64,000 nt of DNA from a virus. Of this stretch, positions 47,043 to 61,766 are shown piece by piece. The notes under the pieces are model-generated. The model saw only the letters and a program-made list of their open reading frames with translations, had not been told where the DNA came from and did no database searches. Numbering within the stretch: the stretch's first letter is position 1; the number at the start of each line of letters is the position of its first letter. Location of the stretch: the IMG/VR virus record IMGVR_UViG_3300025834_000005; one strand, 5' to 3'. The position numbers were made by a program, and so were the translations under genes.

Positions 47043-47044
47043 AT

Positions 47045-47131: not shown

Positions 47132-47142
47132 CAAATTTTTAA

Positions 47143-47667: not shown

Positions 47668-47673
47668 ATATAC

Positions 47674-47747
47674 AGGGTAGTTATGCAGAGACTATACAAC
47701 GCAAGTTTGGAACTTGCGGTTCGTGGGTTTGAATCCCACCTACCCTA
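47674..47747 (+). tRNA. atypical tRNA-like gene, anticodon UGG, degenerate D-arm (no GG) and T-loop tttgaat (no C56)
   Basis: Acceptor agggtag/ctaccct. Anticodon arm gcaag-tttggaa-cttgc. T-arm gtggg-tttgaat-cccac. Confidence 0.45.
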
Positions 47748-47768
47748 CAAATTATTAGTTTGTAATAT

Positions 47769-47841
47769 AGAGTAGTATATCAATTGGCAGATTACCGCAT
47801 TTGGGATGCGGAGGTTCTGGGTTCGAGTCCCAGTTACTCTA
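47769..47841 (+). tRNA. tRNA-Pro (UGG)
   Basis: Acceptor agagtag/ttactct. Loop tttggga. T-arm ctggg-ttcgagt-cccag. D-loop has GG. Confidence 0.75.
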
Positions 47842-47882
47842 CTGATTATCAATTAGTTGATAGTTATTAAATGGTGTTTGTA

Positions 47883-47957
47883 GCTTAAATGGATAAAGCG
47901 CATGCCTGTGAAGCATGTACATGCGAGATCGTACCTCGTCTAACACCCTAATTTTAA
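47883..47957 (+). tRNA. tRNA-His (GUG) with G-1:C73
   Basis: Extra 5' G pairs with C73. Loop ctgtgaa. T-loop atcgtac (A54/U58 swapped). Confidence 0.75.
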
Positions 47958-47967
47958 ATTAAAGATC

Positions 47968-48732: not shown

Positions 48733-48739
48733 TATAAAT

Positions 48740-48812
48740 TGTTTCGTGGTGTAATTGGTAACACGTCTGACTCTGAATCAGTTGAGTGCAGGTTCGATCC
48801 CTGCCGAAACAA
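48740..48812 (+). tRNA. tRNA-Gln (CUG)
   Basis: U1-A72 acceptor tgtttcg/cgaaaca. Loop ctctgaa. T-arm gcagg-ttcgatc-cctgc. Confidence 0.75.
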
Positions 48813-48823
48813 CTAAACTATAT

Positions 48824-48895
48824 TGCCCTGTTATGTAATGGTTAGCATACGACACTTTGAATGTCGGAGTCATGGTTCGAGTCCATGCAGGGCAA
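48824..48895 (+). tRNA. tRNA-Gln (UUG)
   Basis: Acceptor tgccctg/cagggca. Loop ctttgaa. T-arm catgg-ttcgagt-ccatg. Confidence 0.8.
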
Positions 48896-48904
48896 CATTT
48901 TCAC

Positions 48905-48935
48905 TTGCATGTTATTTAAAAAATAACTACTTTTG
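48905..48935 (+). promoter_or_regulatory. Bacteroidota sigma-A-type promoter
   Basis: cTTGca-N20-TActTTTG. Confidence 0.6.
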
Positions 48936-48948
48936 CATAAAAAATTTT

Positions 48949-49152
48949 ATGAACTCAGAAAAATTATTGCTACAGATTAAGAAAGATTTAACACCGTTAG
49001 ATATTGGGAAGATAATTGTATTACCATGCAAGGGAGACCCAAGGGTACTACAAAATGAAGTATCGTTTGCAATAATGGGAGAGAATGAAGGCATTATTCA
49101 ATATATTGTAACTGTTGAGAAACTTAATAACAAAACCAATGGGAAACTATAA
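48949..49152 (+). CDS. hypothetical protein
   Basis: The ATG at M43 of track ORF 48823-49152 is chosen because the 5' part overlaps tRNA-Gln. Confidence 0.5.
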   Translation: MNSEKLLLQIKKDLTPLDIGKIIVLPCKGDPRVLQNEVSFAIMGENEGIIQYIVTVEKLNNKTNGKL

Positions 49153-49540
49153 CCTATTCCTTGATGATTTTAGATCGCCAGAGGACGCTTTCTATTACAT
49201 GCGCAATAGCGATTATTTGAAACTTGAATGGGTAATCGTTCGAAGTTATAATGAGTTTGTGAGCTATATCGAGAAGAATGGTATGCCAGCTACGATTAGC
49301 TTCGACCATGATCTTGCCGATATTCATTATGAACAACAAACAAATATCAACTATGATAATGCTGACGATGATGAGAAGACTGGATATCATTGCGCTAAAT
49401 GGCTTATCGATTACACAATGGATAACGATGTTGAATTACCAGCATATATGTTGATACATTCAATGAATACAGTTGGTAGCCGAAACATTAAATCATTGTT
49501 TGAAAACTACAAGCATTTTGTAAAAAAAGGAGCATCATAA
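49139..49540 (+). CDS. receiver-like domain protein (possibly the cyclic-phosphate-processing REC family)
   Basis: NLFLDDFRSP...ISFDHDLA...TGYHCAKWL...HSMNTVGSRNI pattern. Recalled from memory, unverified. Confidence 0.45.
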   Translation: MGNYNLFLDDFRSPEDAFYYMRNSDYLKLEWVIVRSYNEFVSYIEKNGMPATISFDHDLADIHYEQQTNINYDNADDDEKTGYHCAKWLIDYTMDNDVELPAYMLIHSMNTVGSRNIKSLFENYKHFVKKGAS

Positions 49541-49556
49541 TGATACTCCTTTTTTG
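49522..49556 (+). terminator. intrinsic terminator
   Basis: aaggag.atca-taa-tgat.ctcctt hairpin plus T6. Confidence 0.65.
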
Positions 49557-49563
49557 TTTATAT

Positions 49564-49577
49564 TAGTATTTATTATA
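49564..49577 (+). promoter_or_regulatory. phage-specific upstream motif (TAGTATTTATTATA)
   Basis: 12 nt upstream of ATG 49589. Confidence 0.5.
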
Positions 49578-49588
49578 AATTTGATATT

Positions 49589-50587
49589 ATGAGTGATAAG
49601 TATAGCAAAAATAGGCTCTTCGAAATGATGGGCAGGGTGGATAATAATTTCAATGAGGAGTCAACAGCCTCTGATGGTGGCTATCATAGTAAGCATGTAA
49701 ATAATCCACAATCAGCTGGAAAAGAAATACAGAATTGGCTAAATGGCATAGGTCAGGAAAAAACAACGCAAATATATTATAGAATGGCTGACGAATTTAG
49801 AGACATAGTAATTGATGACTCTGATCTATCATATATGCGTTCAGAATCGCCTGATGATTTGGATTATGGCTTTGTTGAAGCATTGGCATGTTATAAGCAT
49901 GACTATAATGAGGATAGTCCTTATATGTACTTCGTTAATTTCTTACTAAGCACTAAATATAGATTCAATCCAAAAACCACATTTAGTTATCGTGCAGAAG
50001 ACTTGGATGAGAAAGGTAAAGCTATTTATAATACTCTTTCAAATGGTGATGACCATTATGGTGAATTGTATGAAGATTTGCTTTATGATCAGGCTGAACA
50101 AGATGATAACAATAATGACCGCAACGGTTATGATGAAAGCGTTAAAAAAAGACTCTCAACTATTTTTGAAATTAAAAACATCGAAGCTCAGAGAAATGGT
50201 AAGAAGAAAGTTTTAAACGAAACTAAGCTTTTTGGCATGATTAATAAACTTGAAAGTAAACGCAAGCTCAATGAATGGGGTGATGAAAATGACTCTGATT
50301 ACGAGAATGATTCAAGTAATTATAGTGAACAAGGTGATTATGATGATCACGAGGGCAGTAGCAGCAATTATGGCGCAAATGACCGTGAAGCCGACAATAC
50401 AGATCATATGGATGAGGAATTATCAACAGAAGACCCTCATTTTCAAATAGGGTCTTTGAGACAGAAACTTAACTCTCATTTAGATCAGGTTCAAAGACTG
50501 TTCACTTATCTGGATGAAAAACCTTCAATAGAAGCTGTTAAGGGGTTTGTAGGAAGCGTTCTAAATGGTTGGGAAAAAGAAAAATAA
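49589..50587 (+). CDS. RLFE-leader family protein B (very acidic)
   Basis: N-terminus MSDKYSKNRLFEMMGRVDNNF. 332 aa, D/E/N-rich. Confidence 0.65.
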   Translation: MSDKYSKNRLFEMMGRVDNNFNEESTASDGGYHSKHVNNPQSAGKEIQNWLNGIGQEKTTQIYYRMADEFRDIVIDDSDLSYMRSESPDDLDYGFVEALACYKHDYNEDSPYMYFVNFLLSTKYRFNPKTTFSYRAEDLDEKGKAIYNTLSNGDDHYGELYEDLLYDQAEQDDNNNDRNGYDESVKKRLSTIFEIKNIEAQRNGKKKVLNETKLFGMINKLESKRKLNEWGDENDSDYENDSSNYSEQGDYDDHEGSSSNYGANDREADNTDHMDEELSTEDPHFQIGSLRQKLNSHLDQVQRLFTYLDEKPSIEAVKGFVGSVLNGWEKEK

Positions 50588-50626
50588 AAATATTTTAAAC
50601 TTTTTTGAATTATTTACTATTTATAT

Positions 50627-50656
50627 TTGCAGGTAATAAAAAAAGCATTACCTTTG
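50627..50656 (+). promoter_or_regulatory. Bacteroidota sigma-A-type promoter of leader unit 2
   Basis: ACTATTTATAtTTGca-N19-TAccTTTG. Confidence 0.65.
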
Positions 50657-50709
50657 TACCGAAATTAATATTTACTTCCTTTAGGGAATCAAAAAAAAGA
50701 ATAGAAACG

Positions 50710-50844
50710 ATGAGAAATTTACTTAACATGGCACATTACATAGTCAATTCTAATGGGAATCAAAAGAACATGGAATTATTGGCAGTGGAACAGGTCAACC
50801 TCCTATTATGGGCGGATGAGGATACATTGTGCAATGCTGGTTAA
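50710..50844 (+). CDS. leader peptide 2 (MRNLLNMAHYIVNSNGNQKNMELLAVEQVNLLLWADEDTLCNAG)
   Basis: Conserved AGAAAcgATGAGA context. 21 of 44 codons are Leu/Glu/Ala/Val/Trp/Asp, the identities of the downstream tRNA array. Confidence 0.6.
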   Translation: MRNLLNMAHYIVNSNGNQKNMELLAVEQVNLLLWADEDTLCNAG

Positions 50845-50869
50845 GTAGAGTTTAATAATAATATTAAAT

Positions 50870-50902
50870 AAAACCTCCAGCATACGTGTTGGAGGTTTTT
50901 TG
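50870..50902 (+). terminator. intrinsic terminator (attenuator 2)
   Basis: aacctcca/tggaggtt stem plus T7. 44 nt before tRNA-Asp. Confidence 0.8.
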
Positions 50903-50945
50903 TTTATATGCGTTTTTTGACATGTTGGAATTGAAATTAAAAATT

Positions 50946-51017
50946 GGTGCTGTTGTCCAGTGGTAGGATGACTCGTTGTCTGCGAGAGGGTCGTGGGTTC
51001 GAATCCCATCAGCACCG
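50946..51017 (+). tRNA. tRNA-Asp (GUC), unusual U37
   Basis: Acceptor ggtgctg/cagcacc, G73. Loop ttgtctg. T-arm gtggg-ttcgaat-cccat. Confidence 0.65.
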
Positions 51018-51081
51018 CAAAACGTTTATCGGAAGGTAAACGCAGCAGAGTTTAATAGTAACGTTTTAAAATAACTCTGAT

Positions 51082-51153
51082 AGTTCCGTAGTTTATATTG
51101 GTGTGAATCCACGCAGGGTCGTGGGGTTGCTGGTTCAAATCCAGTCGGGACTG
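51082..51153 (+). tRNA. tRNA-like gene of undetermined identity (6-nt anticodon loop as folded)
   Basis: Acceptor agttccg/cgggact. D-loop has TTGGT. T-arm gctgg-ttcaaat-ccagt. The central arm ccacg-cagggt-cgtgg does not give a canonical loop. Confidence 0.35.
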
Positions 51154-51211
51154 CTTTAGCATTATGAGAGTACTTACCCTTAAGGTATGCCAACCTAAAT
51201 TGCTTTTTTAT

Positions 51212-51286
51212 ACTATCATAGGGGAGTTGGTCGTCCCTGCAAGCCTGTCACGCTTGAGATCACGGGTTCGAATCCCGTTGGTAGTG
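51212..51286 (+). tRNA. tRNA-Asp (GUC)
   Basis: Acceptor actatca/tggtagt, G73. Loop ctgtcac. T-arm acggg-ttcgaat-cccgt. Confidence 0.7.
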
Positions 51287-51318
51287 CGAGTTTCATAAAC
51301 GATATGAAACATTTAGAT

Positions 51319-51393
51319 GCCGCTGTTGACAAATTGGAATAAGTCACCACCCTTTCAAGGTGGATATTGCGAGTTCGAACCTCGTCGGCGGTA
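51319..51393 (+). tRNA. tRNA-Glu (UUC)
   Basis: Acceptor gccgctg/cggcggt. Loop ctttcaa. T-arm gcgag-ttcgaac-ctcgt. Confidence 0.7.
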
Positions 51394-51402
51394 CAAATTT
51401 AT

Positions 51403-51483
51403 GGCTTAGTGGTGGAACGGTATACACAGTAGTTTCAAAAGCTACCGCCACACGGCATGAGAGTTCAAATCTCTCCTGAGTCA
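51403..51483 (+). tRNA. tRNA-Leu (CAA), long variable arm
   Basis: Loop ttcaaaa. Variable arm gcc-acac-ggc. T-arm gagag-ttcaaat-ctctc. Confidence 0.75.
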
Positions 51484-51488
51484 CATAT

Positions 51489-51564
51489 GCTTCTTTCGCT
51501 TAGTTGGTTTTAAAGCGTCTGTTTTACACACAGAAGACCGATGGTTCGAATCCATCAAGAAGTA
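51489..51564 (+). tRNA. tRNA-Val (UAC)
   Basis: Acceptor gcttctt/aagaagt. Loop tttacac. T-arm gatgg-ttcgaat-ccatc. Confidence 0.75.
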
Positions 51565-51573
51565 CAATTACAA

Positions 51574-51660
51574 GGCCTCGTGATGAAATTGGCAGTACAT
51601 AGCAGACTTAAAATCTGCTGCTCTGAGAAGGGCGTGTGGGTTCGAAGCCCATCGAGGTCA
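51574..51660 (+). tRNA. tRNA-Leu (UAA), long variable arm
   Basis: Loop cttaaaa. 17-nt variable region. T-arm gtggg-ttcgaag-cccat. Confidence 0.75.
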
Positions 51661-51670
51661 CAAATTATAT

Positions 51671-51743
51671 GGATCGGTAGACCAACGGTAGAGTCAGTAG
51701 CCTTAGAAACTATTCAGTGAGGGTTCGAATCCCTCTCGATCTA
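51671..51743 (+). tRNA. tRNA with anticodon UAG (Leu codons), Leu-like D-arm but only a 5-nt variable loop
   Basis: D-arm gac-caacggtaga-gtc. Loop cttagaa with a C-A mismatch at the closing pair. T-arm gaggg-ttcgaat-ccctc. Confidence 0.55.
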
Positions 51744-51754
51744 CAATATTTAAT

Positions 51755-51843
51755 GGGGAATTGGTGGAATTTGGTAGACACGCTTGTCTAAGAAGCAAGT
51801 GCGAAATAATAGTAGCGTGTGAGTTCGAGTCTCACATTCCTCA
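51755..51843 (+). tRNA. tRNA-Leu (AAG, A34), long variable arm
   Basis: Loop ctaagaa. 19-nt variable region. T-arm gtgag-ttcgagt-ctcac. Confidence 0.65.
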
Positions 51844-51931
51844 CGCAATCAATGGGAACGCATGTGCTAAGCAGATGGGAATCAGACAGGGAGCATGCCA
51901 AGAATCTTGTACAGGGTTGGAGATTCATTTA
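51844..51931 (+). ncRNA. unassigned structured spacer inside the tRNA array (two hairpins)
   Basis: gcatg(t)..catgc stem (51860-51898) and gaatct-N13-agattc stem (51902-51926). No cloverleaf could be folded. Confidence 0.3.
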
Positions 51932-51932
51932 T

Positions 51933-52006
51933 GGGGTCGTAGCTTAATTGGCTAAAGCACTTGATTTGCACTCAAGAGAGTGAGGGTTCGATGCCCTTCG
52001 ACTCCA
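51933..52006 (+). tRNA. tRNA-Ala (UGC) with G3:U70
   Basis: Acceptor ggggtcg/cgactcc gives G3-U70. Loop tttgcac. T-arm gaggg-ttcgatg-ccctt. Confidence 0.8.
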
Positions 52007-52034
52007 CTGATAATCAGGAGATTATCTATTTCAC

Positions 52035-52107
52035 ACGCATGTACCAGAGCGGCTAATGGCACAGCTTCCAACCCTGATGTTCGTGGGTTCGAGTCCTACC
52101 ATGCGTG
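52035..52107 (+). tRNA. tRNA-Trp (CCA), weak anticodon stem
   Basis: A1-U72 and G73, as in bacterial tRNA-Trp. Loop ttccaac. T-arm gtggg-ttcgagt-cctac. Only 3 Watson-Crick pairs in the anticodon stem. Confidence 0.55.
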
Positions 52108-52111
52108 CCTT

Positions 52112-52156
52112 AAGAATAAATGTTGCAAATTTTTGTAACATTTATTCTTTTTTTTC
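52112..52156 (+). terminator. strong intrinsic terminator ending the tRNA array
   Basis: 13-bp stem aagaataaatgtt/aacatttattctt plus T8. Confidence 0.85.
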
Positions 52157-52176
52157 GTATAATTAAGAAAAACAAT

Positions 52177-52422
52177 ATGCGTGATCATAGGGAAATAATA
52201 AATGAATGCTGTGCTGATGTTAATTGCGAAGGTATAATTGAGATCGCTGAATCAGCAATAGGAAAAGCATTAAAAGAATATAATGATGAAATTGTTGAAA
52301 CGCTTCAGAATGCCTCAAATCTTTACACTGTTATTGACGGCAATTACGTTATCCAGAAAATGGATTTAGATCACATAATTGCAGACTTGGAATACAATAC
52401 TAAATTTAAATTATATGAATGA
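52177..52422 (+). CDS. hypothetical protein
   Basis: ATG (M20 of the track ORF) chosen because the 5' part lies inside the terminator. Confidence 0.5.
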   Translation: MRDHREIINECCADVNCEGIIEIAESAIGKALKEYNDEIVETLQNASNLYTVIDGNYVIQKMDLDHIIADLEYNTKFKLYE

Positions 52423-52588
52423 ACTTTTTAGTTTCCTAAACCAACAAAATGTCGATAGATTGATCGGCTATAGTTTTGTTTTCTTGGTGTCATTATATCT
52501 TATCACTGAATGTGTATCGGTTATTTTCAGATCAGCGTTTGCCGCTATTAGGCGTTCAAGAGTGGAAAAACCAAAAACAGAAAAATAA
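52415..52588 (+). CDS. small membrane protein
   Basis: ATGAATGA overlap with the upstream stop. Hydrophobic helix LIGYSFVFLVSLYLI. Confidence 0.5.
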   Translation: MNELFSFLNQQNVDRLIGYSFVFLVSLYLITECVSVIFRSAFAAIRRSRVEKPKTEK

Positions 52589-52591
52589 TAT

Positions 52592-53527
52592 TTATAAAGA
52601 AAATCCTTTTGATGATGACTTAGTGCCATTTAATACATGATAAATCGATGTTTCGTCTAATTTATGATCTTTACAAAATAGTTTTACACTGGCAAAAGTA
52701 TATTGTAAGTTATCACGATAAAGTATATATTCTTTTCCATGATCTATTTCTATGCGATTTCTCAACTCTGATAGTGAAAAATTTTGTTTATTGAAAGCAG
52801 TCCAACCATTAAGAAACGTCATTTTTAATGTTCTTAAATATAGAGGCATCATCATTTTAGCGTTTAATTTATGTGATTTACAAAATTCAGTGAAATTAAT
52901 TACCCTGTGAAATTTATTATCAGTTAAATTGTAAAAAATATAATTATACCATTTTTTACATAAAGAATATTTTATCTTAACATCTGCATAGTATTTGTCA
53001 TTATTTATAATCGTACTAATTGTTGGCGAGGACAGATTATAATATTTAGAAATTTCACGATAATTTAATCCGTTGTTATATTTATCAAAAATACTAATTA
53101 TATTTAAATCGGTTAAATTTTGCTTGGAATCTGATATTGCTTTTTTATGGCTATCCCTCATTTTTCCTGAATTAACAATACCTGCTAATGGCGTCGAGTT
53201 ATATCCGTTGTTATATGATTCATATTTATCTATATAATATTGTTCCCTAATCTGCGAATTATTTTTTGTTATTTCTTCAAATAGTATGAATTCCCATTTA
53301 CTAAAATCGCATTCGTATTTATTAAATGAGCGTTGTAATTTTTCGGAATGGTGCGAATTAGTCCTTAAATTGTAAATATGTCTCGCAATTCTTATATACA
53401 CGCCAAGTTTATTTATTGTCGATCCTATGTAATATTTGTTAGTAATCATATTTCTAATTCCATAAACATATGGCTTATTTTTATTATCAGCAGTAATACA
53501 TTCAATATTTATATTTCGTATGTTCAT
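52592..53527 (-). CDS. GIY-YIG homing endonuclease
   Basis: VYGIRNMITNKYYIGST (GIY-x10-YIG), R..H, REQYYIDKY, NGYN. C-terminal helix-turn-helix YREISKYYNLSSPTIS. Confidence 0.8.
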   Translation of the reverse strand: MNIRNINIECITADNKNKPYVYGIRNMITNKYYIGSTINKLGVYIRIARHIYNLRTNSHHSEKLQRSFNKYECDFSKWEFILFEEITKNNSQIREQYYIDKYESYNNGYNSTPLAGIVNSGKMRDSHKKAISDSKQNLTDLNIISIFDKYNNGLNYREISKYYNLSSPTISTIINNDKYYADVKIKYSLCKKWYNYIFYNLTDNKFHRVINFTEFCKSHKLNAKMMMPLYLRTLKMTFLNGWTAFNKQNFSLSELRNRIEIDHGKEYILYRDNLQYTFASVKLFCKDHKLDETSIYHVLNGTKSSSKGFSL

Positions 53528-53538
53528 AATTAATCTTT

Positions 53539-53550
53539 AATATAAATACG
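53539..53550 (-). promoter_or_regulatory. phage-specific upstream motif (sense CGTATTTATATT)
   Basis: 12 nt upstream of ATG 53527. Confidence 0.5.
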
Positions 53551-53590
53551 TATAAAATTTCTAAAAATAAAGACTATTGAAAAATAATGT

Positions 53591-53621
53591 TTGTAAATGC
53601 AAAAAAAAATACATATCTTTG
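53591..53621 (+). promoter_or_regulatory. Bacteroidota sigma-A-type promoter
   Basis: gTTGta-N20-TAtcTTTG. Confidence 0.55.
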
Positions 53622-53646
53622 CATTCAAATAAAAAAAATATGACTT

Positions 53647-54333
53647 ATGCTTATATTGAGTAACGGCAAGAAAGATTATTATGATGGTGTTGTTCAAACG
53701 ACAGGTATTGATAAAACAATCGTTTATAACAGGCATCAAAATGATATCGAAAACTCGTTTAAGGATTACAAAAACCTACCAAAGGATTTGATTAAACTTG
53801 TTGAAGGTATCACAGCTTTCAATATCGATCTTAAGAAAACCACAATCGAATTTCAGGGGATATATGTGATTGCTTTTTGTGGCAAAATGCATGTATTATG
53901 GCATCTATTAAATAAAACATCATTCAACGATGTTAATCCTGAATCAATCTTCACATATAATTTAAATGATGTGAAGGGTATTGTTAAAACCATTGCATGG
54001 CATCAACAGGGAGACGTTACAGAGGCTTATAAAGCCATTACTAATTACGACCCTATGAGTCTTCATCGTTTACATAATACGCCTGTATTCGCCATTAATA
54101 CGTCATTCGGAAGATATGGCGGACGTGACTCAAACTTTATTATAAATCCTATATTGAAACCCTACAGATTTTATAAGGTTTTCAATTCCTTCGCAGCTTT
54201 ACAGGAAATTCAGATGTTTATCTCTGGTGTATTAGGCACAAATGAAAATAGTATCATTGAATTAAGTGATCAATCAAAAATAGCAAAACATGGATTCGAC
54301 AAAAACTCCTTTAGAAAAGAAAAAAGAACCTGA
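53647..54333 (+). CDS. hypothetical protein
   Basis: 228-aa ORF downstream of a host-type promoter. Confidence 0.6.
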   Translation: MLILSNGKKDYYDGVVQTTGIDKTIVYNRHQNDIENSFKDYKNLPKDLIKLVEGITAFNIDLKKTTIEFQGIYVIAFCGKMHVLWHLLNKTSFNDVNPESIFTYNLNDVKGIVKTIAWHQQGDVTEAYKAITNYDPMSLHRLHNTPVFAINTSFGRYGGRDSNFIINPILKPYRFYKVFNSFAALQEIQMFISGVLGTNENSIIELSDQSKIAKHGFDKNSFRKEKRT

Positions 54334-54390
54334 TAATTGCTGCGGTAAGACCGCTAATGCGATTGAACAGAGAAAGAATAATAAAGCAAT

Positions 54391-54421
54391 AAAAAAGGGA
54401 AGCTAAGTGCCTCCCTTTTTT
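54391..54421. terminator. bidirectional intrinsic terminator
   Basis: A6-gggaag-ctaagtg-cctccc-T5 between convergent genes. Confidence 0.6.
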
Positions 54422-55355
54422 AGTATTTTGCGAACATTTTAAAATCGTTCTTGGTTAACGCTGAATCCACAGTGTCAACATTACCTCTTATTTTCTCGTA
54501 AAGTTTCTTAGCTAATTTAGCATTATAAATTAAAAGATTCACCATTTGAGGATTAAACTCATATTTTTCGATATTTTTCAAATATTCATCGTCATTGGGA
54601 CTGTACATGAATGTTAAAGCTAAATTTCTATCTTGTGAAAAGAATGAAAAAGCGAAAATATCACCATTGCCAACACCTCTCATTTCAACCTTAACGAATT
54701 TGAATTTGGTTGGTTGACTTTCGCCATTCGATCTATCAACAACCAACAAGGGTAATTCAGGTTTATTCATGAATTTACCAAACATATTATCGAGAACATC
54801 TTGTCTTATTTTTCTTGTTCTTGAATCAGGTCTATCGGTTTTAAATGCTTTTGAACCCATTTCAGCACCGATCTCATTAATCTTAGCACTATCGACAGCA
54901 TTGATGCCATCGTGTGAGCTATTACCAATAGTATCGTCCTCTGTACCATCGCTGAGGTTAGCTTCATCCATTTCTGAATCAGTGTTAAAGAAATTTTCTC
55001 TCTTATCTACGAAATCGCCCCATGAGGTTACTAAAAATTGTCTCTCCTTTGTATCGTAAACAATTGTTTTCTCATATGTATCGCCCATATTTATATACAA
55101 GCCGATAGCGTCTCTCCAATAATTATCAACAGATTCGTTTTCATCAGTTATTGTTTCAACGCCATAACCCTCTAAATACTTGTTAGCATTGTCCATAGCA
55201 TCTTCAACAGAATTTTGTGATAGATGTTCTCCGTTAAGTTTCTCAGCATATCTCTCAATAACATTGCTTTCGTCATCGATTTCATTCACGCTTCCGAAAT
55301 GTTGATCAATTCTTCCCATTACCTCAAATAACCTTTGTTTACTATTTTTTTTCAT
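54420..55355 (-). CDS. RLFE-leader family protein C (acidic)
   Basis: N-terminus MKKNSKQRLFEVMGRIDQHF. Confidence 0.65.
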   Translation of the reverse strand: MKKNSKQRLFEVMGRIDQHFGSVNEIDDESNVIERYAEKLNGEHLSQNSVEDAMDNANKYLEGYGVETITDENESVDNYWRDAIGLYINMGDTYEKTIVYDTKERQFLVTSWGDFVDKRENFFNTDSEMDEANLSDGTEDDTIGNSSHDGINAVDSAKINEIGAEMGSKAFKTDRPDSRTRKIRQDVLDNMFGKFMNKPELPLLVVDRSNGESQPTKFKFVKVEMRGVGNGDIFAFSFFSQDRNLALTFMYSPNDDEYLKNIEKYEFNPQMVNLLIYNAKLAKKLYEKIRGNVDTVDSALTKNDFKMFAKY

Positions 55356-55365
55356 GTTGATATTT

Positions 55366-55797
55366 TTAATTAAAACTTACTGTGCATGTATTATTTTTAA
55401 AATCGAATTGAAGATCAGTAGCGTATAAAGTACCACCGTTTGTTAGATTGGCTTCACCAATTATGAATCTCCATTTATATTCGTCTATGTTCTTTTCGGT
55501 ATTCGATATTAATTCATCTGTGTTCTTGTCTCTGAGTTCAAGACTAAATGTTCCTTCCAATCCTATGATAACTATTTTCATATACCCGATACCTTGTTCA
55601 TCAGGATTAAACCCAATACCCCAATTAATAACGATATTGCTGTCATTAATGTCTGATTCATATTCAGATGATATGTTGTCATAGTTGAAAAAATGAGATT
55701 GCTCAATAACGGATTTGAATGTGAACTGACCATTAGCGTATACGTAATTTTCGCTTATTAGCCTGATTTCATCGTTGATAATCTTATTAATATTCAT
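55366..55797 (-). CDS. hypothetical protein
   Basis: Start moved to M14 (MNINK...) because the phage motif lies inside the first 13 track codons. Confidence 0.5.
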   Translation of the reverse strand: MNINKIINDEIRLISENYVYANGQFTFKSVIEQSHFFNYDNISSEYESDINDSNIVINWGIGFNPDEQGIGYMKIVIIGLEGTFSLELRDKNTDELISNTEKNIDEYKWRFIIGEANLTNGGTLYATDLQFDFKNNTCTVSFN

Positions 55798-55811
55798 ATT
55801 GTCAATATTTT

Positions 55812-55824
55812 TATAATAAATACT
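55812..55824 (-). promoter_or_regulatory. phage-specific upstream motif (sense AGTATTTATTATA)
   Basis: 15 nt upstream of ATG 55797. Confidence 0.5.
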
Positions 55825-55854
55825 TATTTTTTTCAAATTATTTACTATTTATAC

Positions 55855-55885
55855 TTGCACATGTGATTTATTTGAATTACTTTTG
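55855..55885 (+). promoter_or_regulatory. Bacteroidota sigma-A-type promoter of leader unit 3
   Basis: ACTATTTATAcTTGca-N20-TActTTTG. Confidence 0.65.
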
Positions 55886-55913
55886 TGCCAGTTAAAATAA
55901 TTAAAAAATAGAA

Positions 55914-55991
55914 ATGATGAATGCAACACTTAAATACGGAAAGACTACTAAATCTTATAAAAAATATAAGATGAAGAAGGACTGTGTGTAA
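55914..55991 (+). CDS. leader peptide 3 (MMNATLKYGKTTKSYKKYKMKKDCV)
   Basis: Conserved AGAAAtgATGA context. 8 Lys (AAA and AAG) and 3 Tyr (TAC and TAT) codons precede the Lys/Tyr tRNA array. Confidence 0.6.
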   Translation: MMNATLKYGKTTKSYKKYKMKKDCV

Positions 55992-56013
55992 GTGAACTAT
56001 ATATAATATATTC

Positions 56014-56048
56014 AAAAACCCAGTCTTAATTTAAGTCTGGGTTTTTTT
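56014..56048 (+). terminator. intrinsic terminator (attenuator 3)
   Basis: cccagtctt-aattt-aagtctggg plus T7. 15 nt before the first tRNA. Confidence 0.8.
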
Positions 56049-56062
56049 ATGTTAAAAAATTC

Positions 56063-56134
56063 GCTCCTATAGCTTAATGGTAAAGCCTTCGACCTTTAAT
56101 CGAATGACCCCTGAATCAGTATCAGGTGGGAGCA
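56063..56134 (+). tRNA. tRNA-Lys (UUU)-like variant with C33 and a non-canonical T-loop
   Basis: Acceptor gctccta/tgggagc. Loop cctttaa. T-arm cctga-atcagta-tcagg. Confidence 0.55.
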
Positions 56135-56150
56135 CAGAGTATAATAAGTC

Positions 56151-56221
56151 GCTTCTATAGCTCAATGGTAGAGCTTGTAACTTTTAATTATAAGACCTCG
56201 GTTCGATTCCGAGTAGGAGCA
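56151..56221 (+). tRNA. tRNA-Lys (UUU)
   Basis: Acceptor gcttcta/taggagc. Loop cttttaa. T-arm ctcgg-ttcgatt-ccgag. Confidence 0.8.
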
Positions 56222-56230
56222 CAAAATATT

Positions 56231-56304
56231 GCCTTCGTAGCTTAAATGGATAAAGCTACGCCCTCTTAAGGCGAGGACTGTGGGATCGTACCCCACCGAG
56301 GGCA
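56231..56304 (+). tRNA. tRNA-Lys (CUU)
   Basis: Acceptor gccttcg/cgagggc. Loop ctcttaa. T-arm gtggg-atcgtac-cccac. Confidence 0.75.
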
Positions 56305-56379
56305 CTAACTGAAACACGAATCCAAGTTTCTGTCAACTCATTCGCTTAGAGTGAGAAGAGTTTAGAGGATTCATATATT

Positions 56380-56473
56380 GGGAGTCTAACGGCAGCAGAC
56401 TGTAAATCTGCCCTGCTTTAAAAAATTGTCGTACTGGAATAGCAGTAGAAAGGTTCGAATCCTTTGGCTCTCA
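56380..56473 (+). tRNA. aberrant tRNA-Tyr (GUA)-like gene: no room for a normal D-arm and a 37-nt variable region
   Basis: Acceptor gggagtc/ggctctc. Anticodon arm gcaga-ctgtaaa-tctgc. T-arm aaagg-ttcgaat-ccttt. Only 8 nt between acceptor and anticodon stem. Confidence 0.4.
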
Positions 56474-56484
56474 CAAATAAATAA

Positions 56485-56566
56485 GGGTAAGATGGTAAAT
56501 TGATTAAATCAGAGGCTTGTAACACCTTCGTCATCGACTATGTAGGTTTGATTCCTACCTTACCCA
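56485..56566 (+). tRNA. tRNA-Tyr (GUA), long variable arm
   Basis: Perfect acceptor gggtaag/cttaccc. Loop ttgtaac. Variable cgtcatcgactat. T-arm gtagg-tttgatt-cctac. Confidence 0.7.
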
Positions 56567-57221
56567 CAATGATCGCAGTAATTATATTTAAGAATTTCTG
56601 CGATGTCTGTTCTTTGAAATATTTTTGGGTTGATGTATCGATGATACAAAATTCGATTCCATGTTCAATACATGCTTGAAATTTACGATCATCGTTATTT
56701 TGAATTTTAACCAGTTTATCTTGACCGTAGATTGGCTCGTAATGAAATATTCCATTTAGCTCGAAAGCAAGTTTTAATGACGGAATATAAATATCAAGTT
56801 CTGAATTAATAGCTTCTTTACGATTGAAATGAATTTCAAGACAAGGATAAAGCTTTGTAAGTTCTATTTCAAGATATACTTCAAGTTTTGATCGTCTATT
56901 GCCAGTCGTCTTATGTTTATTATTATAAGTGGCTGCACATGACTTACAACAGAAGTTATTAACATTATCTTTCACTGATGAAAATTTCTTTAAAAAGGAT
57001 ATTCCACAATTATTGCATTTTACGTTTATCTTTGTAATCTGTGATAGTGCCATGCATTTTCTTGAGCAAAAATCAATACTGTTAGTCGTGTTACCTTTCA
57101 AATAGTACTTAATTAGTTTCTTTTCAACAAAAAAGGTATTTTCACATGTTAAGCATTTGCATGGCAATTTGTCAGTGCCCTTAGCTTGGTCGTATTCAAT
57201 ATCAATGTATAATGGATTCAT
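56538..57221 (-). CDS. zinc-finger + PD-(D/E)xK (Vsr/DUF559-like) homing endonuclease
   Basis: Two CxxC...FCSxxC modules, then ELDIYIPSLKLAFELNGIFHY, paralogous to LDFKHKNKIIEYNGNYWH in the terL intein. The TAG stop and last 29 nt are antisense to tRNA-Tyr. Confidence 0.7.
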   Translation of the reverse strand: MNPLYIDIEYDQAKGTDKLPCKCLTCENTFFVEKKLIKYYLKGNTTNSIDFCSRKCMALSQITKINVKCNNCGISFLKKFSSVKDNVNNFCCKSCAATYNNKHKTTGNRRSKLEVYLEIELTKLYPCLEIHFNRKEAINSELDIYIPSLKLAFELNGIFHYEPIYGQDKLVKIQNNDDRKFQACIEHGIEFCIIDTSTQKYFKEQTSQKFLNIITAIIVGKVGIKPT

Positions 57222-57229
57222 ATTCTTTT

Positions 57230-57241
57230 ATTATAAATACT
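57230..57241 (-). promoter_or_regulatory. phage-specific upstream motif (sense AGTATTTATAAT)
   Basis: 9 nt upstream of ATG 57221. Confidence 0.5.
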
Positions 57242-57316
57242 ATCAATTTTGAAATTCGAAACACCATACGCCCACAAATATTTTATTAATAGAAATTACT
57301 TTAAAATTAATTAGTT

Positions 57317-57556
57317 ATGGAAACATTAGTAGAGATCATCAAAGGAAATCGTGCAATTATGTCGCACGTATGTAATGGTAAGGCTTATTTTACCATCGAG
57401 ACAATGAATAACAAGTATCAACTTGAAATGGATACCACTGATCGTGATTGGAAGACAACTCATATGCAAACTGAGTATGCTGCAATTACTTTGATGCGTT
57501 GGATTCGAAGAGGTTTAGACGAAAAGGACGGTACATTTATATCACTATATGAGTAA
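57317..57556 (+). CDS. hypothetical protein
   Basis: 79-aa ORF followed by a terminator. Confidence 0.55.
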   Translation: METLVEIIKGNRAIMSHVCNGKAYFTIETMNNKYQLEMDTTDRDWKTTHMQTEYAAITLMRWIRRGLDEKDGTFISLYE

Positions 57557-57582
57557 CTTATAATCAGCTTGGAAACAAAAGT

Positions 57583-57612
57583 GCGATTGAAGAAATTTAA
57601 TCGCCATTTTTT
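57583..57612 (+). terminator. intrinsic terminator
   Basis: gcgatt-N10-aatcgc hairpin, then caT6. Confidence 0.55.
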
Positions 57613-57651
57613 GTAACCTTTTCACTTTCTCAACGTATAAGAATGAAAATT

Positions 57652-57726
57652 GGCTCATTATATTAGCGGTCAGATGGCGGAATTCTAAACTCCGAGACGT
57701 GGGTTCGAGTCCCACACGAGCCACCA
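57652..57726 (+). tRNA. suppressor-type tRNA, anticodon CUA (reads UAG), with genomically encoded CCA
   Basis: Acceptor ggctcat/acgagcc (one A-C mismatch), A73, then cca. D-loop agcggtca. Anticodon arm cggaa-ttctaaa-ctccg. T-arm gtggg-ttcgagt-cccac. Confidence 0.6.
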
Positions 57727-57744
57727 AAATTTATAAATAAGTAA

Positions 57745-58032
57745 ATGAATAAAATAATTGCGGAAGATTTATATTCTGAAAGTCCTGATAAATTTAAGGT
57801 GTTTAGAGAATGGGGTGCTGTTAATGCGTCAGTTACAAAATTTTTGTATAACGCAACACCTAAGACATTTATATTTCTTTTTGGTGAAGATGAAGGAATG
57901 AGACTTTGGGGACATTTTTGTAATGACTGCAATAGAAAAGATTTTACGTTATTTAAGACGTATTTATCGTCAACACAATTTAATGATCTGCTTGTGAATA
58001 TCCATTACAATGAATTAATATTCTGCTTATGA
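57745..58032 (+). CDS. hypothetical protein
   Basis: 95-aa ATG ORF. Confidence 0.55.
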   Translation: MNKIIAEDLYSESPDKFKVFREWGAVNASVTKFLYNATPKTFIFLFGEDEGMRLWGHFCNDCNRKDFTLFKTYLSSTQFNDLLVNIHYNELIFCL

Positions 58033-58074
58033 AATGAATATTTATAAATCAATAAAAGAATTTAAAAAAAAGAC

Positions 58075-58105
58075 TTGCATAATTGAATTATTTAGTTTAT
58101 TTTTG
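58075..58105 (+). promoter_or_regulatory. Bacteroidota sigma-A-type promoter
   Basis: cTTGca-N20-TAttTTTG, 35 nt before ATG 58140. Confidence 0.6.
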
Positions 58106-58139
58106 CAGAGTTAAGTATTTAATATAAAAACGTAGTATT

Positions 58140-58472
58140 ATGAAGAAGTAGATTAAGTTAGTAACGATCACCAGAAAAGACCTGAAAGCAGGTTACCAGT
58201 TATGCCAAACCTCACATTCTGTGGCCGAGTTTGCATACACTTATCCAGATCATTTCAATGATTGGATGCGAGATTCCAAATATCTCATTTCATTGTCTGT
58301 CGATAATGAAGACCACCTCAAAACCCTTTTTGACAAATTAAAGACCAATGGTGCTACTATTGTGGCATTCACTGAACCTGATATTAACGATCAGCTGACA
58401 TCGATATGTTATTACGGCACACCTGAGTTGAGAAAATTAACTGACCATTTGGATTTAGCATTAAAAAATTAA
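58140..58472 (+). CDS. PTH2-family peptidyl-tRNA hydrolase-like protein with an in-frame TAG at codon 4 (58149-58151)
   Basis: Reads MKK-TAG-IKLVTITRKDLKAGYQLCQTSHSVAEFAY...W...ISLSV..E..L..L...LKTNGA....FTEP....TSICYYG......LTDHLDL. This matches the PTH2 pattern LVVRxDLKMGKGKxAAQCSHAA. The track ORF starts only at GTG 58221 and would lose that conserved N-terminus. Confidence 0.55.
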
Positions 58473-59216: not shown

Positions 59217-61766
59217 ATGACAAAAGAAAATGATTTGAAACCTATCTCGCCAGAGATTATAAAGGCAGCATCACTATCGTATTTTAAAGGCGATGCATTA
59301 GCGGCAGAAGTTTGGATGAATAAGTATTGCCTGAAAGATGAGAATAATTTTTACGAGTTATCTCCAGATGCGATGCACCACCGAATTGCCAGAGAGATCG
59401 CAAGGATTGAAAATAATTACCCAAATCCTGTATCGGAAGAAGCGATATACGATTCATTAAAGAATTTTATTAGGATTGTACCACAGGGAGGGCCTATGAG
59501 TGGCATTGGAAATAATCTACAAATCGTATCATTAAGCAATTGCTTTGTGATCGGAGATAAGGGTGTATCTGATTCATATGGCGGAATTTTGAAAATTGAT
59601 CAGGAGCAAATTCAGCTAATGAAACGACGTGGTGGAGTTGGACACGATTTATCGCACATCAGACCAACAGGTTCGCCAGTGAAAAACAGTGCATTAACAT
59701 CAACAGGCATTGTTCCGTTTATGACACGTTTTAGCAACTCAACAAAAGAAGTTGCACAAGATGGTAGACGTGGTGCTTTAATGCTCTCAATAGCTATTAA
59801 ACACCCAGATTCAGAGGCATTTATTGATGCCAAATTAGAAAAGGGTGAAATATCTGGAGCTAATATATCTGTTAAATTGGATGACGAGTTTATGAAAAGT
59901 CGCTATCTACCTAATGGCGAATTCGTTCAGCAGTACCCAATTAACAGTGAAAATCCTACTGTTACGAAGACTATTAACTCTAATAAACTGTGGGATAAGA
60001 TCATTCATAATGCTTGGAAATCAGCAGAACCTGGAATTCTGTTCTGGGATACCATTATAAAAGAATCTATTCCAGATTGCTATAAGGATTTTGGTTTCAA
60101 AACAGTATCGACTAATCCATGCGGTGAGATACCTCTCTGTCCTTATGATAGTTGCAGGCTTTTAGCTTTAAATCTATTTGGCTATGTTATCAATCCTTTC
60201 ATGCCAAATGCATCATTCGATTGGAAATTATTCAAGTCTGACGTTCGTTTAGGTATGAGATATATGGATGATATTATTGATCTTGAAATTGAAAAGATTG
60301 ATTCAATATTGTTGAAGATCGAAAATGATCCAGAAGATGCGTTTATCAAAATGTATGAAAAGAATCTTTGGGAGCAGATAAAAGCAATGACGATCAAAGG
60401 TAGACGTACTGGCTTAGGCATCACAGCAGAGGGTGATATGCTTGCTTCTTTAGGCTTACGTTATGGAACTGATCTTGCTAATGACTTCGCAGAAGAAGTT
60501 CAAAAAACGCTTAAATTAGAGGCTTATAGGGCATCTGTTGAAATGGCTAAAGAACGTGGTGCATTTCCTATTTATGACGCTAAGCTTGAAGAAAATAACC
60601 CTTTCATTGTAAGAATTAAAGAAGAAGATCCAGAGTTGTATGCCGATATGTTGAAATATGGTCGTAGGAATATTGCCGCATTAACAATCGCACCAACAGG
60701 AACAGTGAGTTTAATGACACAGACAACATCAGGTATTGAACCTTGTTTTATGCCAGTTTATATGCGTCGTAGAAAAATTAATCCACAGGAAAAAAATGTT
60801 CGTATTGACTTTACAGACTCAGAAGGTATTTGCTGGACAGAGTACCCAATCTTTCATCATAAATTTGAACTATGGTTAAAAATAAATGGCTACGATGTTG
60901 AAGCTGTTAAGCTTATGAAACCGTCAGAGGTTGAGGAGATTACAAAATTAAGTCCTTATTATCTCGCCACAGCTAATGATGTTGATTGGGTGAAAAAAGT
61001 TGAAATGCAGGGTAGATTACAAAAACATGTTGATCATAGTATTTCTGTAACGGTTAATCTTAAAGCTGACGCAACAGAAGAACTTGTCTCCAAAGTATAT
61101 GAAACTGGATGGAAAACAGGCTGCAAAGGTATTACAGTTTATCGTGATGGATGTCGTGATGGCGTTTTGGTTAGCGCAACCGATAAAAAGGAAAATGATA
61201 AGATCAAAGCATTCCATGATACACAAGCACCTAAGCGTCCAAAACGTTTAAAGGGTGATATTATTAGGTTCAATAATAATAGCGAAAAATGGATTGGTGT
61301 TGTAGGCTTAATCGATGGCAGACCTTACGAATTGTTTACAGGTAAACTTCAAAACGGATTAGCTTCGATTCCTGTTTATGTTAAAGACTGTGTGATTATA
61401 AAAATGAAATTAGCCGATGGGACATCACGGTATGATGTTGAATACACCGATAATGTAGGTGTTGCTCATATTGTTGAAGGCTTATCATATAAATTCCTTC
61501 CCGAATACTGGAATTATGCTAAGCTTGTTTCAGGTATTTTACGTCATGGAATGCCACTTATTTATGTTAAAGAATTGGTTGAGTCATTAAATCTTAATGA
61601 TGACAATTTGAATACATGGAAGAATGGCGTTGTCCGTATCATCAAAAGATATATTCCAAATGGTATAAAGGGTAAAGGTGTTTGTGATGTTTGCGGCGGA
61701 GACCGACTTGAATACGTCGAAGGATGCCTCACTTGTAAAGATTGCGGAAATAGTAAATGTTCGTAA
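59217..61766 (+). CDS. nrdJ: class II (adenosylcobalamin-dependent) ribonucleotide reductase
   Basis: STNPCGEIPLCPYDSCRLLALNL active-site loop. 849 aa. C-terminal CxxC...CxxC zinc ribbon (CDVCGG...CLTCKDCG). Confidence 0.8.
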   Translation: MTKENDLKPISPEIIKAASLSYFKGDALAAEVWMNKYCLKDENNFYELSPDAMHHRIAREIARIENNYPNPVSEEAIYDSLKNFIRIVPQGGPMSGIGNNLQIVSLSNCFVIGDKGVSDSYGGILKIDQEQIQLMKRRGGVGHDLSHIRPTGSPVKNSALTSTGIVPFMTRFSNSTKEVAQDGRRGALMLSIAIKHPDSEAFIDAKLEKGEISGANISVKLDDEFMKSRYLPNGEFVQQYPINSENPTVTKTINSNKLWDKIIHNAWKSAEPGILFWDTIIKESIPDCYKDFGFKTVSTNPCGEIPLCPYDSCRLLALNLFGYVINPFMPNASFDWKLFKSDVRLGMRYMDDIIDLEIEKIDSILLKIENDPEDAFIKMYEKNLWEQIKAMTIKGRRTGLGITAEGDMLASLGLRYGTDLANDFAEEVQKTLKLEAYRASVEMAKERGAFPIYDAKLEENNPFIVRIKEEDPELYADMLKYGRRNIAALTIAPTGTVSLMTQTTSGIEPCFMPVYMRRRKINPQEKNVRIDFTDSEGICWTEYPIFHHKFELWLKINGYDVEAVKLMKPSEVEEITKLSPYYLATANDVDWVKKVEMQGRLQKHVDHSISVTVNLKADATEELVSKVYETGWKTGCKGITVYRDGCRDGVLVSATDKKENDKIKAFHDTQAPKRPKRLKGDIIRFNNNSEKWIGVVGLIDGRPYELFTGKLQNGLASIPVYVKDCVIIKMKLADGTSRYDVEYTDNVGVAHIVEGLSYKFLPEYWNYAKLVSGILRHGMPLIYVKELVESLNLNDDNLNTWKNGVVRIIKRYIPNGIKGKGVCDVCGGDRLEYVEGCLTCKDCGNSKCS

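Follow-up and report, generated by a model that had tools for sequence, protein, structure and literature searches.

The 64,000-nucleotide (nt) stretch of DNA analysed here, hereafter the window (IMG/VR virus record IMGVR_UViG_3300025834_000005), belongs to a jumbo phage, has 34% G+C and carries about two dozen transfer RNA (tRNA) genes between 46.8 and 57.7 kilobases (kb), as found with ARAGORN and Rfam, with open reading frames (ORFs) for homing endonucleases interspersed among them. This report concerns Unit 3, one of three leader/tRNA units in the window, in which a promoter-like module, a short leader ORF rich in lysine and tyrosine codons, a terminator and an array of lysine and tyrosine tRNA genes follow one another in that order. 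All results are in silico, with the mechanism inferred from sequence alone, and they lead us to propose that Unit 3 is very probably a ribosome-mediated (leader-peptide) transcription attenuator of the trp/his/ilv type, which would control read-through into the phage tRNA-Lys/tRNA-Tyr array. The features of the unit are as follows.

55842..55890, plus strand: promoter-like module, common to the window's three tRNA units and followed by an A-rich untranslated stretch before the ORF
55842-55859, plus strand: 18-mer TTACTATTTATANTTGCA, containing TAtaCTTG
55880-55887, plus strand: second TAnnTTTG-type box, TACTTTTG
55914..55991, plus strand: leader ORF MMNATLKYGKTTKSYKKYKMKKDCV, 25 codons with 8 Lys and 3 Tyr
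55927..55939, plus strand: region 1, predicted 5' strand of the anti-antiterminator, codons T5-G9 including K7 and Y8, pairing with 55982-55994 when no ribosome is present
55952..55972, plus strand: predicted inner hairpin AUCUUAUA/UAUAAGAU, over codons S14-K19
55978..55994, plus strand: region 2, the predicted switch strand, containing the stop codon (55989-55991), with region 1 as alternative partner through 55982-55994
56014..56048, plus strand: intrinsic terminator AAAAACCCAGUCUUAAUUUAAGUCUGGGUUUUUUU, regions 3 and 4 plus the U-tract, -15.7 kcal/mol
56063..56134, plus strand: variant tRNA-Lys(UUU), found by Rfam (53.5 bits) and not by ARAGORN, with anticodon loop CCUUUAA (C33) and a non-canonical T loop
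56151..56222, plus strand: canonical tRNA-Lys(UUU), found by ARAGORN, Rfam 71.3 bits
56231..56305, plus strand: canonical tRNA-Lys(CUU), found by ARAGORN, Rfam 54.5 bits
56380..56475, plus strand: atypical tRNA-Tyr(GUA)-like gene with acceptor, anticodon and T arms, without a D arm and with an insertion of about 37 nt in the variable arm
56486..56566, plus strand: tRNA-Tyr(GUA) with a long variable arm, Rfam 25.1 bits, below the gathering score

The promoter-like module resembles the Bacteroidota -33/-7 promoter, with both boxes as candidate -7 elements, and a similar CGTATTTAT..TACATTTG motif lies at the equivalent place in relatives of the phage. The leader ORF was not predicted by the gene callers used on the source contig, which left the region blank. 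Its lysine and tyrosine codons are AAA four times, AAG four times, TAT twice and TAC once; an earlier, sequence-only reading of this DNA, which also gave the peptide as it stands here, had correctly noted the mixed use of AAA with AAG and of TAT with TAC, but this mixed use carries no signal. The frequency of AAG in leaders is the same with or without a tRNA-Lys(CUU) gene, and because AAG use is thus independent of that gene we dropped the point as evidence. A second concern of the same reading, that the abundance of lysine and tyrosine might be no higher than in the background of AT-rich frames, is answered by the background itself, which is clearly exceeded. With 11 Lys and Tyr among 25 codons the leader ranks first among the 527 ATG-started ORFs of 15-60 codons in the window; the same number is reached by just 0.02% of stop-free 25-codon segments over the six frames and by 3 of 20,000 dinucleotide-preserving shuffles of the ORF, and the binomial probability against the amino-acid usage of the window's long ORFs is P = 3e-5. 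The Lys/Tyr enrichment of Unit 3 is far above the AT-rich background.

A simple terminator scan misses the terminator because of one T.T mismatch in it. Only 15 nt separate its U-tract from the first tRNA gene, at 56063, which leaves no space for a separate promoter. Two mutually exclusive partners are predicted for region 2. In the antiterminator, 55978-55989 (AAGGACUGUGUG) pairs with the 5' arm of the terminator at 56018-56027, and the core of this helix is the 7-bp pairing of AGGACTG (55978-55984) with CAGTCTT (56021-56027), which the sequence-only reading had located exactly; the ORF-to-arm duplex has an energy of -10.1 kcal/mol, and among 27 distinct terminator arms from this and related units the leader pairs best with its own, better than with all 26 others. 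In the anti-antiterminator, region 1 holds region 2 instead. That reading had further suggested that AAGACT (55941-55946) can pair with the same terminator arm; the position is right, and the pairing is a weak alternative of -5.9 kcal/mol.

Which of these structures would prevail was followed by folding the transcript as it stands before the 3' arm of the terminator emerges, with a 28-nt ribosome footprint masked. When the A site lies on K7, K13, K16, K17 or Y18, the antiterminator is the minimum-free-energy structure (-12.2 kcal/mol), and when it lies on K19, K22 or the stop codon, no antiterminator forms. Without a ribosome, the minimum-free-energy fold has region 2 held by region 1, and the full-length RNA forms the terminator; this free leader-plus-terminator RNA is strongly structured (z = -5.73 against shuffles). 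Unit 3 had earlier been judged the least compelling of the window's three units; instead it shows the cleanest folding behaviour of the three.

Relatives were gathered through homologues of the ribonucleotide reductase (RNR) gene at 59217-61766, 3 kb downstream of Unit 3. Homologues 60-70% identical to it occur on 80 IMG/VR contigs (up to 363 kb), and with the tRNAs of their loci typed by ARAGORN a Lys/Tyr tRNA array is seen to precede RNR by 1.5-4 kb in nearly all of them, while other arrays follow the gene. Among these RNR-recovered contigs, wherever the contig is not truncated and enough upstream sequence is present, every Lys/Tyr array is preceded by a homologous leader and terminator: a TAnnTTTG-type promoter motif, an ORF of 22-31 codons of the form M(R/K/I)TFGTYYYGKKSYKKQLIGIGN..MSK.., and the terminator AACCCGATTCGAAAGATTCGGGTTTTTT. 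The Unit 3 leader is homologous to this family leader, M.TFGTYYYGKKSYKK..., and a protein alignment of it with 21 relatives has the core K-S-Y-K-K in common. A strict DNA pattern for the leader core matches 34 IMG/VR contigs; two of these end just after the match, and in all 32 that have sequence beyond it Lys/Tyr tRNAs follow directly after the leader. The apparent exception, L042, does have Tyr and Lys tRNAs, which ARAGORN missed or mis-typed.

All of these relatives are absent from the GenBank phage collection. A nucleotide search of GenBank phages with Unit 3 and with a core-family leader gave tRNA-level matches only and no cultured relative with a leader, a tblastn search with the 925-residue protein of a neighbouring gene gave one distant metagenomic match, and the ORFs beside the tRNA arrays of Bacteroides phage crAss001 show no leader-like composition, from which it follows that the leader system is not general to phage tRNA arrays. 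A scan of a genome collection for the leader core gave a single match, in a sequence deposited as a Candidatus Paceibacterota metagenome-assembled genome (L114, JBAZIW010000001.1), which carries no host information and is most likely a jumbo-phage genome binned as a bacterium of the candidate phyla radiation. An IMG/VR scan with the 18-mer TTACTATTTATANTTGCA was set aside, all of its 32 matches being unrelated chance matches inside genes.

The relatives carry other tRNA arrays as well, and the leaders before these are of different kinds. We defined a unit as the longest ATG-started ORF of 12-60 codons that ends at most 90 nt upstream of a terminator, with a tRNA gene at most 600 nt beyond the terminator, and this rule, applied to all loci, yielded 48 unique units in which two or more tRNAs lie downstream. 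Six array types are represented, in one-letter amino-acid code K/Y, T/S/R/N/G/I/F/C, T/R/I, N/F/L/S/G/C, P/H/Q and D/E/L/V/A/G, and the leader types found before three of them are the following.

..STSTSSRNGNGIFCS.FTGRN..: before Thr-Cys-Asn-Ile-Ser-Phe-Gly(-Arg) arrays
MKNLIKITRITRKRRTTSSNGFIV: in the L096/L042 lineage, before Thr-Arg-Ile
MKLVNLNNNFCNLNSNSISGSNFFGSC..: in the L096/L042 lineage, before Asn-Phe-Ile-Ser-Gly-Leu-Cys

Across the 48 units, which include related sequences and are thus not independent, although the signal is carried by several unrelated leader types and not by copies of one, residues cognate to a leader's own array make up on average 0.48 of the ORF frame against 0.23 of the other two frames. 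The observed match between leaders and arrays is reached by none of 20,000 permutations of the arrays among the leaders, and 18 of 19 amino acids are commoner in leaders when their own tRNA lies downstream. A natural swap in the L096/L042 lineage shows the same correspondence within a single lineage: there the Thr, Arg and Ile tRNAs stand in a separate unit with a leader rich in T, R and I, while the leader of the remaining unit is without T and R and has gained L alongside Leu tRNAs. The cognate residues are also unevenly placed, with a fraction of 0.59 upstream of region 2 (peaking at 73% at 6-10 codons before it) against 0.30 from region 2 onward.

The second line of comparative evidence comes from the helices. 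In the Lys/Tyr family the leader segment GGAATCGGGAAT, which encodes IGIGN, is identical to the 3' arm of the terminator and can therefore pair with the 5' arm CCCGATTC, and RNAalifold, given 20 members of the family, picks exactly this antiterminator helix, GGAATCGGGAAT/CCCGATTC. In divergent members the ORF segment and the 5' arm of the terminator are altered together, as the following pairs show.

L096: ORF segment GTGAAGATCGG, 5' arm CTGATCTTCAC
L042: ORF segment GTGAAGATCAG, 5' arm CTGATCTTCAC
L102: ORF segment GGATCAGG, 5' arm CCTGATTC
L082 (T/S/C unit): ORF segment AGATACGGGTTCT, 5' arm AGAACCCGTATC
L037: ORF segment GTGTCGGG, 5' arm CCCGACAC
L067: ORF segment CGAGTCTT, 5' arm AAGACTCG
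Window, Unit 3: ORF segment AAGGACTG, 5' arm CAGTCTT

Compared with dinucleotide-shuffled ORFs, the duplex of an ORF with its own arm has a mean z of -3.07, with p<=0.05 in 77% of the 48 units. When the 27 distinct arms are swapped among the ORFs, the energy is -12.8 kcal/mol with the own arm and -8.9 kcal/mol with foreign arms, and none of 20,000 permutations is as good (p<5e-5). The anti-antiterminator, or 1:2 helix, in which the 5' part of the ORF with its cognate codons pairs with region 2 and its flank, also covaries in the Lys/Tyr family: on a structure derived from a single member of the alignment, the fraction of paired cells is 86%, compared with 40-49% in controls with the partner slid by 1-3 columns, double changes occur in 8 pairs (columns 13/78, for example, have G-C 10 times and A-U 6 times), and the covariation score is reached by none of 500 shuffles. 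The inner hairpin is kept across the family as UCUUAUAAG/CUUAUAGGA, with 91% of cells paired and compensatory changes in 2 pairs, and two core-family members behave like Unit 3 when folded with the ribosome mask.

Unit 3 thus has a leader rich in cognate codons, a terminator with no intervening promoter, a predicted antiterminator and a predicted 1:2 helix over the regulatory codons. We read it as an attenuator because the unit is conserved, the composition match is specific to the ORF frame, both alternative helices covary and the cognate codons are concentrated upstream of region 2. The core of the sequence-only reading, that a leader matching the downstream tRNAs, a terminator and a competing antiterminator together form a switch, is strongly supported by the homologues, the composition match and the covariation.

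The switch would work as follows. Transcription would start from the promoter-like module (about 55850-55890), and the 25-codon leader would be translated as RNA polymerase advances. With Lys- and Tyr-tRNAs plentiful, the ribosome would reach the end of the ORF and cover region 2 (55978-55994); upon its release region 1 (55927-55939) would capture region 2, the terminator would form, and transcription would stop 15 nt before the first tRNA gene. With slow decoding of Lys or Tyr codons, the ribosome would stall somewhere from K7 to Y18, melting region 1 and freeing region 2, which could then engage the 5' arm (56018-56027) ahead of the synthesis of the 3' arm, so that the polymerase would read into the tRNA genes. 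The new phage tRNAs would relieve the stall, and since the cargo tRNAs decode the very codons that are monitored, the circuit would feed back directly and negatively on decoding capacity, matching tRNA supply to demand. Inducers could be any shortage of tRNA-Lys or tRNA-Tyr, whether from cleavage by a host anticodon nuclease, from phage-induced loss of host tRNAs or from heavy codon demand by the phage. Of this scheme we infer that the leader is translated and that ribosome and polymerase are coupled, and likewise in which direction the response runs and what its physiological trigger is.

The sequence-only reading had pointed to anticodon nucleases, and a possible link of Unit 3 to defence of this kind (PrrC and colicin E5 type) is plausible. 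Because leaders precede arrays for most amino acids, a general supply-and-demand control is indicated and not an alarm specific to Lys and Tyr; such a general control would respond to tRNA cleavage too. For the lineage as a whole, we think it probable, with somewhat less assurance than for Unit 3 itself, that in this group of jumbo phages leader-peptide attenuation governs the tRNA arrays, each set being transcribed only upon stalls caused by its lack, that this is the first such case for tRNA genes, and that the leaders act as sensors countering tRNA depletion, including depletion by anticodon nucleases.

Several observations weigh against the attenuator. The antiterminator of Unit 3, short and AT-rich, is modest when the duplex is taken alone (z = -1.4, p = 0.10), and at -12.2 kcal/mol it is weaker than the terminator at -15.7 kcal/mol, so that the model depends on kinetics. 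A ribosome stalled at K19, K21 or K22 would be close enough to region 2 to tip the outcome towards termination. The core family has its stop codon about 9 codons past region 2, so that in the replete state termination there must depend on the 1:2 helix forming anew once the ribosome has passed. Under the ribosome mask the folding of Units 1 and 2 of the window is ambiguous, and this folding is not used as support. The leader codons match the encoded anticodons at 0.77, compared with 0.74 for proteome codon usage, a marginal difference, and the excess of substitutions at third codon positions is mild (0.33 versus 0.26), for which reason coding constraint is not cleanly separable from constraint on RNA structure. 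The gap between terminator and tRNAs, at most 30 nt in 22 of the 48 units, is 100-390 nt in some relatives and could there hold extra promoters. Finally, the model would presuppose an RNA polymerase coupled to ribosomes in a jumbo phage.

A rival reading is that the leader of a real attenuator senses general translation capacity or the stage of infection in place of the supply of Lys- and Tyr-tRNA, so that any slowing or absence of ribosomes on it, as from lost coupling or a phage-changed translation apparatus, would alter termination and the amino-acid match would be secondary. The alternative helices are supported independently of codon identity, the match of codons to anticodons is weak, and the promoter type and the M-R/K-T start common to all units could reflect their co-regulation as a class. 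Such a sensor, however, has no need of a unit-specific composition, yet the composition tracks six array types, even when tRNAs move between units, and the cognate residues are placed exactly where a stall would free region 2. Moreover, the terminator forms in free RNA, so that absence of the ribosome would lead to termination and not to induction. We regard a general sensor of this kind as unlikely.

A little less likely again is that the ORF is untranslated and the element acts as RNA only, either as a signal in the processing or the stability of the tRNA precursor or by sensing tRNA directly in the manner of a T-box. The very high nucleotide conservation in the Lys/Tyr core, the weak period-3 signal in the substitutions and the strong structure of the leader RNA would suit such an element. 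Nevertheless, a start codon and an open frame of similar length are present in all 48 unique units despite very different sequences, the replacements stay within the cognate set (GKK to GYK; AAG AAA to AAA AAG), the composition match is confined to the ORF frame (0.48 versus 0.23, as above), and the leader has no match to the T-box or to any other Rfam leader or riboswitch family.

We find it quite improbable, though the peptide is conserved in about 35 contigs, that the product of the leader is a small basic peptide that has its own function, with the hairpin just ending its gene and the tRNAs expressed by leaky read-through or from another promoter. This would leave unexplained both the different peptides before the different array types, each composed of residues that match the tRNAs behind it, and the covariation between the terminator arm and the 3' part of the ORF, and between the Unit 3 terminator and the first tRNA there is no space for a promoter. 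Chance association of a Lys/Tyr-rich ORF and a hairpin in an AT-rich spacer, to which the AT-rich Lys and Tyr codons, the 34% G+C of the window and the lack of significance of the Unit 3 antiterminator on its own might lend some colour, is refuted by the comparative data, the background tests, homologues and permutation tests together leaving it next to no probability.

The attenuator reading places Unit 3 beside well-known bacterial systems. Leader-peptide attenuators control amino-acid operons of Proteobacteria, among them trpL, hisL, leuL, thrL (Thr and Ile), ilvL (Ile, Leu and Val)/ivbL and pheL, and the closest of these to Unit 3 are the multi-amino-acid leaders thrL and ilvL. They share with Unit 3 and its family a short ORF rich in regulatory codons, the 1:2, 2:3 and 3:4 alternatives and the freeing of region 2 by a stall over region 1, features that in the phage are predicted. 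Unlike the classical attenuators, Unit 3 has tRNA genes and not enzyme genes as its cargo, and the aminoacyl-tRNA supply that it would sense includes the product of the regulated genes, which would make the autoregulation direct. The phage leaders differ further in covering up to 8-9 different amino acids and in belonging to a jumbo phage with Bacteroidota-type promoter motifs, and a scan of 46500-58200 with the Rfam Trp_leader, His_leader, Leu_leader, Thr_leader and related families gave no match, whether at the gathering score or at E<=1. In Escherichia coli the pheM leader attenuates the pheST operon for phenylalanyl-tRNA synthetase; it resembles Unit 3 as leader-peptide attenuation of a translation component for the same amino acid, and differs from it in regulating a synthetase gene, in concerning a single amino acid and in being cellular and not viral. 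The T-box riboswitch, which recognises uncharged tRNA directly, by means of a specifier codon and the T-box sequence and without translation, is similar in making termination or antitermination conditional on the state of a specific tRNA and in its translation-related targets. We rejected a T-box identity for Unit 3, as the same Rfam scan of 46500-58200 gave no T-box match and a translated ORF is predicted instead.

On the side of the cargo, the role of phage tRNA genes has, according to one account, been debated for about 50 years between codon compensation and replacement of tRNAs destroyed by defences, and phage tRNAs are there proposed as a general answer to enzymes of the PrrC, VapC, colicin D and colicin E5 type (PMC10264068). 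A second paper describes tRNA-Lys as a proven target of phage-defence nucleases and a tRNA-Lys variant of phage T5 as neutralising PARIS (PMC11464382). Unit 3 resembles the anti-defence tRNA clusters in its arrayed phage tRNA-Lys genes, here accompanied by tRNA-Tyr, and in having one Lys(UUU) with a C33 loop. The abstracts of these papers are silent on demand-sensing control of phage tRNA expression (PMC11464382, PMC10264068), and it is in the regulatory module and not in the tRNAs that the novelty of Unit 3 would lie. A full-text literature search gave no account of tRNA genes, phage or cellular, that have leader peptides or attenuation upstream; the one paper that matched "tRNA operon" together with attenuation was irrelevant and was set aside. 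Ribosome-mediated attenuation is known, and what is new is the tRNA cargo, the multi-amino-acid design and the viral setting.

If the attenuator reading is true, leader-peptide attenuation extends beyond enzyme and synthetase genes to tRNA genes, to viruses and to leaders that monitor up to nine amino acids. The phage would then treat tRNA supply as a regulated quantity, with each leader a record of the decoding shortages that it expects, and the defence hypothesis would become testable, in that cleavage of tRNA-Lys should turn on Unit 3. The units would also offer compact modular aminoacyl-tRNA sensors for synthetic biology. For annotation, they would supply a simple rule by which more such units, left blank by present gene callers, could be found.

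The tRNA genes of Unit 3 deserve some comment of their own. The sequence-only reading described the array as three Lys tRNAs (UUU twice, CUU once) and two Tyr(GUA) tRNAs, which is correct, but three of the five genes are non-canonical. U33 is near-universal in the anticodon loops of tRNAs, and the C33 Lys(UUU) gene at 56063-56134 could be a nuclease-evading variant or a decaying copy. The Tyr-like gene at 56380-56475 is called by neither ARAGORN nor Rfam; it is homologous to positions 4134-4199 of crAss001 (MH675552.1; 80% over 66 nt), and the homologue there (region 4132-4301) falls in an unannotated gap between tRNA-Lys and tRNA-Phe. The last gene, at 56486-56566, aligns with Tyr tRNAs of relatives that are canonical and called by ARAGORN (L082_8712, L036_41). 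The spacer between the Lys and Tyr tRNAs, 56305-56380 (CTAACTGAAAC...GTTTCTGT...AGAAGAGTTTA), is conserved in the distant relative L148 (9873-9799, minus strand) and may be a processing signal or a small RNA.

Some relatives have additional sequence between the Lys/Tyr terminator and the tRNAs. A conserved element of about 300 nt lies between the terminator and the first tRNA-Lys in a subset (L090, at 5870-6240, L034, L040, L067, L092 and L104), holding GAGCAGAGGAAGGTTCTGACAGGCA and a tRNA-like gene whose anticodon loop is enlarged (L090 6156-6239, Rfam tRNA 38 bits). In L039, L043, L082 and L094, repeated motifs (GCATAAAAACGCATA; TGAAAAAC(A/G)..TAT) stand 150-200 nt past the terminator and before the tRNAs, and these could be protein-binding sites or an additional promoter.

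Within the window, the exact 18-mer TTACTATTTATANTTGCA occurs only three times in the 64 kb, at 46837, 50614 and 55842, each copy before a leader/tRNA unit, with the short ORF about 70-100 nt downstream of the copy and then a terminator and a tRNA array. Units 1 and 2 have this promoter 18-mer, an M-R-(T/N) start, a leader ORF and a terminator as common features, and the three units compare as follows.

Unit 1 (46837-47044): leader MRTIFNIVPQHQPQQLKSFQSNG, with Pro three times, His, and Gln twice downstream
Unit 2 (50614-50906): leader MRNLLNMAHYIVNSNGNQKNMELLAVEQVNLLLWADEDTLCNAG, with Asp, Asp, Glu, Leu four times, Val, Ala and Gly downstream
Unit 3: leader MMNATLKYGKTTKSYKKYKMKKDCV, with Lys three times and Tyr twice downstream

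Cognate enrichment of the Unit 1 leader (PQHQPQQ) has P = 7e-5; for Unit 2 it is P = 0.06 overall and 6e-4 for the second half. The first half of the Unit 2 leader (ELLAVEQVNLLLWADED..AG) is rich in Asn, yet tRNA-Asn was not found in its array.

The arrays and their surroundings hold a few further features. Homing-endonuclease ORFs of the HNH and GIY-YIG kinds lie in or beside the tRNA arrays at 47143-47667 (plus strand) and 52592-53527 (minus strand), and an R2K ATP-grasp protein is encoded at 47968-48732, between the His and Gln tRNAs. In the Unit 2 array, 51082-51154 is a tRNA-like sequence with an aberrant anticodon loop (ARAGORN "tRNA-???", Rfam 33 bits). At 57652-57726 there is an amber-suppressor-type tRNA with anticodon CUA, labelled "Pyl" by ARAGORN and found also in the relatives L080 and L096, which suggests reassignment of TAG in part of the phage genome.

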